This document shows, in pieces, positions 51,096 to 51,177 of a DNA stretch of 64,000 nucleotides. The stretch comes from Escherichia coli (GTDB taxonomy: Bacteria > Pseudomonadota > Gammaproteobacteria > Enterobacterales > Enterobacteriaceae). A program made the position numbers and the translations under genes. Location of the stretch: NCBI RefSeq assembly GCF_003790525.1, contig NZ_CP033635.1, one strand, 5' to 3'. Under the pieces are notes generated by a model that worked only from the letters and a program-made list of their open reading frames with translations, was not told the origin of the DNA and did not search any database. How positions within the stretch are numbered: the first letter of the stretch is position 1; each line of letters opens with the position of its first letter.

Positions 51096-51177
51096 GACGC
51101 TTACTCATCAGAAATCTGGTATGCTTTAATTAAACCAGTGTCGCTGATGTGTAAGCGTTGACGTTGGGAGGCGATTA
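51096..51177. repeat. About 80-bp imperfect palindromic element, copy A (3' of paralog 1)
   Basis: Outer arms GACGCTTACTCATCAG (51096-51111) and CTGATGTGTAAGCGT (51144-51158); inner CTGGT/ACCAG pair; about 80 percent identical to copy B. Confidence 0.7.

Follow-up and report, generated by a model that had tools for sequence, protein, structure and literature searches.

The 64,000-nucleotide stretch of Escherichia coli DNA analysed here (the window; NCBI RefSeq assembly GCF_003790525.1, contig NZ_CP033635.1) contains two copies of a palindromic element, each located shortly after the stop codon of one of two large paralogous genes, an espY5-type gene (paralog 1) and espY4 (paralog 2). The element is real, conserved and structured, and of an ordinary kind: a locus-specific 3' hairpin that was duplicated together with the tail of a neighbouring gene, yieH. 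It is unannotated and has no Rfam family. On balance, although with considerable doubt, we read it as a stem-loop in the 3' untranslated region (3'-UTR) of the espY5-type and espY4 mRNAs, forming or protecting the end of the transcript. The structure of the element, its sharp conservation, the constraint on its stems, the strand-specific substitutions, its context and its restricted distribution are direct observations; that the stem constraint acts through RNA 3'-end formation or stability is inferred. The first-pass annotation of this region had offered a terminator or mRNA-stability hairpin, a small-RNA gene, a recombination site and a miniature repeat element; the first of these fits best.

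Structure and Position of the Hairpin

The pattern GACGCTTACTCATCAG-N(31/32)-CTGATGTGTAAGCGT is present at 51096-51158 and 55461-55524, where the first-pass annotation had placed the two copies; these are two occurrences in the window, against none expected in shuffled sequences. As had also been reported, the hairpin starts 58 and 57 bases past the last base of the respective stop codons (51038 and 55404). The outer arms form an inverted repeat, with 14 Watson–Crick pairs out of 16 and one G.U pair on the + strand. The nested CTGGT/ACCAG pair was found in both copies.

RNA folding of the two copies, proposed earlier as a check, yielded a strong hairpin in each case, and none of 200 shuffled sequences folds as well. 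The common fold comprises 9 bp, a U x U mismatch, 6 bp, a small internal loop, and the 5-bp CUGGU/ACCAG stem with two to three further pairs, making a helix of about 23 base pairs in four stacked segments with about 42% G+C. In copy 1, the lower stem (51096-51104/51151-51159) has 9 bp including a terminal G.U pair and is followed by the T x T mismatch 51105/51150, the middle stem (51106-51111/51144-51149) has 6 bp, and the inner CUGGU/ACCAG stem (51116-51120/51134-51138) has two extra pairs and closes a 13-nt loop. The stems of copy 2 are of 9, 6, 3 and 5 bp, and its loop is 14 nt long. The − strand also folds, with −24.5 kcal/mol for copy 1 and −31.7 kcal/mol for copy 2 (z −5.0 and −5.5).

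The block of similarity between the copies extends over 51092-51177 and 55457-55543, where 73 of 87 positions (84%) are identical. The hairpin itself is 85% identical and the 18-nt tail that follows it 83%, so that the earlier estimate of about 80 percent was close to the 84-85% measured. Outside the block the identity drops to the level of shuffled sequences (about 50%): 55% in the last 120 nt of the coding regions, 51% in the spacers between stop codon and hairpin, and 52% in the 50 nt beyond the tail. The block is thus a sharp island of similarity, far beyond chance. The possibility that it is just the tail of a longer duplicated coding segment was not borne out, since the coding regions end at shuffled-level identity and the fold is common to both copies. 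The conservation of copy 1 seen on comparing the window with locus L011 was rejected as evidence of selection, since the whole downstream region is 97-100% identical there and the divergence is confined to the coding region.

Constraint on the Stems and Probable Strand of Action

Both copies were gathered from about 30 loci, taken from complete genomes of various lineages, from metagenome contigs and from two divergent haplotypes, and 18 distinct hairpin sequences were obtained. RNAalifold independently recovers the same structure from them. In a set of 20 distinct sequences from these loci, 10 of 92 stem columns are polymorphic within the copies, versus 12 of 40 columns in loops and bulges (p = 0.010) and 35 of 96 in all unpaired positions and flanks taken together (p = 3.6e-5). 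The differences between the copies are distributed in the same manner, affecting 3 of 46 stem columns versus 6 of 20 unpaired ones (p = 0.018).

On the + strand, 97.6% of cells are paired. All seven stem transitions are C/T and none is A/G, whereas the unpaired sites have 6 C/T and 10 A/G changes (p = 0.0075), and both stem transversions fall at non-Watson–Crick positions. Six of the seven C/T changes lie opposite G, where they turn the pair into G.U on the + (espY-sense) strand and into an A.C mismatch on the − (yieH-sense) strand; the seventh does the reverse. Six pairs vary on one side only, all of them as G.U. As a result, every one of the 18 haplotypes has 22-23 of the 23 pairs on the + strand, with energies from −24.8 to −32.5 kcal/mol, whereas the − strand is reduced to 19-22 pairs and reaches only −18.5 kcal/mol in the least stable case. 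In copy 1 the + strand is the more stable one throughout; in copy 2 the two strands are about equal. This pattern points to selection of an RNA helix in espY-sense transcripts. It can also serve as a small worked example of how one-sided changes that preserve G.U pairing, combined with an unpaired-site control, indicate the constrained strand of a palindrome when divergence is too low for covariation.

The Repeated Unit and the yieH Relic

The conserved tail of copy 2, ending in GGAGGCGATTA, consists of the 15-nt 3' flank and the stop codon (TAA, − strand) of the convergent gene yieH. The corresponding tail of copy 1 is followed by a remnant of yieH itself. This relic keeps residues 106-128 of YieH, of which 15 of 23 are identical (tblastn E 3e-8; 33/40 nt, or 82%). 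A weaker match to the C-terminal residues 205-220 (tblastn E 0.077) lies between this fragment and the relic stop, and about 230 nt of yieH were deleted. The relic is unannotated in RefSeq, and there is no mention of it in the accessible part of the 2009 paper on this locus. A small ORF after copy 1 (51179-51235, + strand, 18 codons, GGAGG-N7-ATG), antisense to the relic, was considered and rejected, as its ATG is ATT in loci L008 and L009 and it is absent from copy 2.

The tail and the relic beside copy 1 mean that the 3' end of yieH was once part of the repeated unit. The statement that the element travels with the gene module is therefore correct in that it is present after both paralogs, and incomplete in that the repeated unit also took in the end of yieH. 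Judging from the alignments, the unit that occurs twice runs from the 5' element through espY, the spacer and the hairpin to the 3' end of yieH. The relic shows that the islet Z5211-Z5214 was built by stacking two such units, each with espY, hairpin and yieH end, after which the inner copy of yieH died; this history is not in the available part of the 2009 description.

The 5' element of the unit lies in front of both espY starts at a distance of about 100-170 nt, as it does in front of their homologue in L012, where it is at 5718-5790. L012 is an assembled locus with a single hairpin (Logan ERR3329175, 1-9135). The 5' element includes a small stem-loop, CCAGGGT...ACCCTGG, followed by the 29-nt core AATGAGCGATTTTTTACAGTATTCA, while the other upstream sequence is about 55-60% identical. 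It is probably a promoter or part of the 5' UTR.

Possible Role at the Ends of Convergent Genes

Each hairpin lies between convergent units, the espY5-type gene and the Z5213 gene with the yieH relic in the case of copy 1, and espY4 and yieH in the case of copy 2. On the + strand, no U-tract follows the hairpin (the tails are UGACGUUG in copy 1 and UGAAGUAA in copy 2), and the hairpin therefore does not qualify as a canonical intrinsic terminator on the espY-sense strand; a simple terminator scan did not call it. Rho-dependent or run-off termination is the usual fate of transcripts of AT-rich, H-NS-silenced foreign genes. The espY-sense transcripts of such genes would fold the hairpin, which would then be a barrier defining the 3' end: exonucleases working 3'-to-5' would be halted there once the transcript had ended by Rho-dependent or run-off termination, and the 3' end and the stability of the espY mRNA would be set in this way. 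The hairpin may also limit read-through into yieH antisense and insulate the convergent neighbour.

On the opposite strand, the palindrome 15 nt past the yieH stop could, together with a variable U-run, act as a yieH terminator. In the yieH sense, copy 1 is followed by CUUUUUG, CUUUUUGU (6 U in 8), the single copy of L012 by CUUUUUC, CUUUUUCG, and copy 2, which is next to the live yieH, by the weak CUAUUCC, CUAUUCCC (3 U in 8). A shared, two-way use of copy 2, similar to that of bidirectional terminators at convergent genes, is plausible. The looser − strand pairing of copy 1 fits the loss of its yieH-side use once its yieH died. The K-12 haplotype, which has no islet, carries an unrelated and equally strong hairpin right after yieH (z −4.9), which fits a need for structure at this gene end.

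Several points weigh against the reading of the element as an espY 3'-UTR stem-loop. Compensatory double changes, the subject of a covariation check proposed earlier, were found in 0 of 22-23 pairs among the 18 E. coli haplotypes, whose divergence is too low for a fair test; more distant homologous loci were sought via the protein family, and only E. coli-type loci were found. Because the haplotypes come from related E. coli lineages, the polymorphisms counted cannot be taken as independent events; in addition, two variants are metagenome singletons that could be errors. C-to-T changes are somewhat favoured on the leading strand, which is the + strand here, and this could yield part of the C/T excess; the unpaired-site control indicates that this bias is not strong enough to explain the stem pattern. 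The U-runs are on the opposite, yieH-sense strand only. Transcript 3'-end or small-RNA data usable for this locus were found neither in Term-seq, small-gene and transcriptome papers on enterohaemorrhagic E. coli (EHEC) nor in K-12 3'-end maps. The espY genes are barely expressed, and espY4 is nearly silent, in most published conditions, while espY5 is a pseudogene in O157:H7, making selection on its 3' UTR less obvious.

The strongest competitor is that the hairpin is primarily the terminator of yieH on the − strand, in which case copy 1 would be the terminator of the dead yieH copy, carried along by duplication, and may now terminate the Z5213 gene. We consider this unlikely, although the distance of 15 nt from the yieH stop to the hairpin base, the U-runs CUUUUUG and CUUUUUC in the yieH sense, the yieH stop and relic within the repeated block, and the different strong hairpin of K-12 at the same position all speak for it. 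However, the copy beside the functional yieH has the poorest U-run, six of the seven stem transitions give A.C on the yieH strand (one of them fixed in the O157:H7 lineage), and the − strand stability ranges from −18.5 to −32 kcal/mol. Moreover, the K-12-type yieH does without the element and has no convincing homology past the stop, and the hairpin is on the islet side of the junction. Homology of the Z-type hairpin with the K-12 yieH-cbrB hairpin was rejected for the same unconvincing alignment past the stop codon. The 3' arm of this K-12 hairpin (L002 2440-2506; z −4.9) holds the Shine–Dalgarno sequence of cbrB, AAGGGAG; as far as can be judged from this arrangement, it could couple the termination of yieH to occlusion of cbrB translation.

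There is little probability that the palindrome is a functionless leftover of a duplicated segment, its copies being similar only through recent duplication or gene conversion. The similarity between the relic and yieH (82% over 40 nt) is about equal to that between the two hairpins (84%), so that recency contributes to the latter, and the absence of covariation and of expression evidence would agree with this reading as well. Yet identity on both sides of the block is no higher than random, polymorphism within each copy is 3- to 4-fold lower in stems than in loops and flanks, the spectrum of stem substitutions is unlike that of adjacent unpaired sites, and chance would hardly produce and preserve a 23-bp helix with z of about −4.4 to −5.5.

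A regulatory RNA of another kind is similarly improbable, whether as a target through which RNase III would destabilise the espY mRNAs, as a site bound by ProQ or another 3'-UTR-binding protein, or as a small RNA derived from the 3' UTR. RNase III can act on a helix of about 23 bp, and the helix found here is nearly continuous over this length, is constrained on the mRNA-sense strand, and is conserved in two very divergent paralogs along with the 5' element. Against this, the loop, usually the seed region of small RNAs, is the most variable part, and there is neither a U-tail for Hfq nor an Rfam match. An independent small-RNA gene, as suggested in the first-pass annotation, found no support either: the upstream spacers are 51% identical compared with 50% in shuffles, leaving no conserved promoter, and the + strand U-tail and Rfam match are missing here as well.

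The espY-sense 3'-UTR stem-loop is thus the reading that we retain. If it is correct, the hairpin likely sets the 3' limit and the stability of the mRNAs of two type III effector genes that have received little study. Nothing in the findings challenges current knowledge, and their importance is modest.

Distribution and Rearrangements at the Locus

The element was detected in 1108 of 5426 complete E. coli genomes, in no more than two places per genome, all of them on the chromosome and at this locus; the genome-wide search for further copies that had been recommended thus revealed none beyond it in these genomes. About 100,000 bacterial and archaeal species, each represented by one genome, were scanned for the pattern, and no genuine copy was found outside E. 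coli. The scan returned two mis-binned E. coli Z-locus contigs in a Collinsella metagenome-assembled genome (MAG) and an unrelated perfect palindrome in a Bacteroides MAG. The two contigs, JAIJJM010000244.1 (L004) and JAIJJM010000384.1 (L005), are assigned to 'Collinsella sp.' and represent E. coli Z-locus DNA present through contamination or mis-binning. A metagenome scan anchored on the yieH end gave 17 contigs, all E. coli-like, which were used only as extra haplotypes. A search of the whole window against Rfam 15 at the gathering threshold gave no relevant match. With permissive E-values, nothing relevant was found in 48100-55700, where the local match is a chance-level miRNA hairpin (E 0.54). 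Our own covariance model (R1), built from the variants, recovered the two copies and nothing else in the window, and had no hit in the K-12 locus.

This distribution does not fit the suggested miniature repeat element: the palindrome has at most two copies at one locus and is missing from the roughly 100,000 genomes of other species. Nor is there a target-site duplication: the flanks ACAAAAA...GACGTTG and GGAATA...GAAGTAA contain no direct repeat. Core sites of integron attC are also absent, since the 3' ends GTTGACG and GTTGAAG do not fit GTTRRRY and there is no 5' RYYYAAC. No integrase is annotated in the 20-kb region, and the islet contains neither an integrase nor a transposase.

It is, accordingly, very unlikely that the palindrome functions as DNA, be it a recombination joint or cassette boundary, a relic of the inverted repeats of a miniature transposon, or a protein-binding palindrome. 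Some coincidences are suggestive, namely that the left edge of the homology between copies 1 and 2 falls at the hairpin, that the single hairpin of L012 combines a copy-1-type left flank with a copy-2-type interior, that an IS3-family element resides inside the left arm in strain ABW_A19, and that the junction between K-12-type and Z-type sequence adjoins the right arm. But the at most two copies at a single locus, without target duplication, integrase, transposase or attC cores, speak against it; other breakpoints are off the hairpin (the mosaic edge of L011 near 50940 and the deletion of L003, 50144-51286); the C-to-T changes retain pairing only as RNA-type G.U and would break up a palindrome in DNA; and ordinary recombination between two direct repeats explains L012. 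The hints for the recombination site proposed in the first-pass annotation are therefore circumstantial only. A structure-dependent recombination joint, a cassette boundary where espY modules swap or stack next to yieH, would explain the onset of homology at the left edge, the chimeric hairpin of L012, a rare lineage where it connects an espY5-type gene directly with yieH next to an intact bgl operon, and the landing of the insertion sequence in the arm, and is nonetheless highly improbable.

Three rearranged loci can be noted. L012 contains bglF-bglB-bglH-yieL-yieK (98% identical to K-12), an espY5-type gene, the single hairpin and a Z-type yieH. It is a hybrid of two supposedly alternative islets, cbrB and cbrC are missing, and no complete RefSeq E. 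coli genome has this arrangement. In E. coli ABW_A19 (L030), the IS3-family element occupies 5762-6990 in the left arm of copy 2, with junctions near 5675 and 7000 and an apparent 5-bp duplication, CGCTT; the yieH-side hairpin is almost intact. We take the ends of this element to be IS2-like. Finally, a divergent lineage of the Z locus, about 89% identical overall, is represented by L003 and L031 (RMDEC465 and 2013C-4282; about 2160-3010). There, a deletion has removed the 3' portion of paralog 1 together with hairpin copy 1 and the relic of yieH, so that only copy 2 is left.

The Islet and Its Genes

The window is 100% identical to the chromosome of E. coli SMS-3-5. It spans the replication origin: the three 13-mer repeats of oriC are at 24059-24107, presumably without a mismatch to the K-12 sequence. 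The region under study is located between phoU and yieH, where an AT-rich islet (about 30% G+C) replaces the K-12 segment bglGFBH-yieLK-cbrCB. It contains three genes: paralog 1, a pentapeptide-repeat gene and paralog 2 (Table 1). The locus is the published Z5211-Z5214 'Z locus' or 'Z islet' (Sankar et al. 2009, PMC2646131), which, in the part of the paper available, is presented as the alternative of the bgl islet in phylogroup D/E-type strains and as ORFan, H-NS-type DNA.

Table 1. Features of the Z islet and its surroundings (positions in the window).
Feature	Position	Strand	Basis or remark
5' conserved element, paralog 1	48377..48442 (core 48409-48437)	+	29-nt core 93% identical to that of copy 2
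Paralog 1, EspY5-type type III effector gene	48549..51038	+	829-codon ORF, ATG 48549; WEX5F in alignment
Hairpin copy 1, 64 nt	51096..51159	+	Fold −29.9 kcal/mol, z −4.4; covariance-model hit 106 bits; RNAalifold consensus
Copy 1 tail GACGTTGGGAGGCGA + TTA, relic of yieH 3' flank and stop	51160..51177	−	83% identical to copy 2 tail
yieH pseudogene relic, internal deletion	51181..51284	−	tblastn, frame translations, nucleotide alignment
Z5213-type pentapeptide-repeat protein gene, 395 aa	51508..52695	−	Converges on hairpin copy 1 from the right
5' conserved element, paralog 2	52827..52892 (core 52859-52887)	+	Same alignment
Paralog 2, espY4 (type III secretion system effector EspY4), 802 aa	52996..55404	+	RefSeq name in several other genomes
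Hairpin copy 2, 65 nt	55461..55525	+	Fold −32.0 kcal/mol, z −4.4; covariance-model hit 116 bits
Copy 2 tail: yieH 3' UTR 55526-55540 (15 nt) + yieH stop 55541-55543	55526..55543	−	RefSeq yieH
yieH (6-phosphogluconate phosphatase)	55541..56206	−	RefSeq; convergent with espY4

The proteins of the two paralogs are only 33.5% identical to each other. Both carry the WEX5F motif of the EspY family, which is invariant in the alignment (W67 E68 ... F74); the family of type III secretion system (T3SS) effectors with this N-terminal motif has been described previously (PMC6313403). A search of both paralogs with Pfam and NCBIfam gave a weak pentapeptide-repeat signal and nothing else. Only three full-length clusters of the EspY4/5 family were found at 50% identity among 1.8 billion representatives, and all three come from E. 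coli-type loci with the same chromosomal neighbourhood. The Z5213 gene as an inverted partial copy of espY was rejected, the similarity being not significant (E 0.21).

RefSeq labels the product of paralog 1 'type III effector protein' and splits the gene into a 'frameshifted hypothetical protein' stub and a CDS at 48663-51038. The ORF is uninterrupted from its ATG, has a good Shine–Dalgarno sequence upstream, and equals in length the full-length homologue P0122. The split looks like an annotation transferred from O157:H7, where the gene is broken.

The espY5-type alleles are extremely divergent among E. coli-type loci, with 58% (L011, 628-3117) and 52% (L012, 6001-8328) amino-acid identity to the SMS-3-5 protein. 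L011 is a mosaic: from about 100 nt before the espY5-type stop onward, its DNA is 88-100% identical to the window. In the sequences compared, this pattern suggests diversifying selection or repeated replacement of alleles.

The core genes to the right of the islet (yieH, adeP onward; 55541-61400) form two deeply diverged haplotypes, and the divergence is linked to the type of islet present. Over 2.4 kb to the right of the islet, L012 is 96.8% identical to SMS-3-5 and only 90.5% to K-12. Just after phoU, a sub-threshold match to naRNA4, an RNA family derived from REP elements, was recorded at 48134-48195 (+ strand; 33 bits versus a gathering score of 59.5) and resembles an ordinary REP element.

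Comparison with Known Systems

The islet of the window is the same as that in the Z-locus paper (PMC2646131), where, in the part available, four AT-rich genes Z5211-Z5214 are described, two of them being the large paralogous ORFs; the hairpin, the yieH relic and the conserved 5' element are not described in that part.

Among the known palindromes of enterobacterial genomes, REP/BIME and ERIC/IRU elements are likewise imperfect, intergenic and located 3' of genes. Unlike them, the element is locus-specific, with a maximum of two copies per genome, has no similarity to their consensus sequences and no Rfam hit, and was not found in other species. The lambda sib site, which mediates retroregulation by RNase III, is likewise an extended and almost perfect helix that follows a coding region on the mRNA-sense strand. 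Its internal mismatches differ from those found here, and a role of RNase III in the present case is hypothetical.

With intrinsic and bidirectional terminators the hairpin shares a stable stem-loop tens of bases past stop codons and a position between convergent genes. On the 5' side of the hairpin is an A-rich run (AAAAAG or AATAG), corresponding to a U-run on the opposite strand. The differences are the lack of a U-tract on the constrained strand, the unusually long stem with about 42% G+C, and the loop of 13-14 nt.

AT-rich horizontally acquired genes, such as those upstream of the hairpin, are typical targets of Rho and H-NS. Close parallels are hairpins that stabilise 3' ends, for instance the REP stem-loops of malEFG, the trimmed ends of Rho-terminated transcripts and the 'positive retroregulator' of the Bacillus thuringiensis cry gene. 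The present element differs from the REP stabilisers in that it is unrelated to REP in sequence and is not dispersed, and its function is putative. Like these hairpins, it is situated in a 3' UTR, has no U-tail and would block 3' exonucleases.

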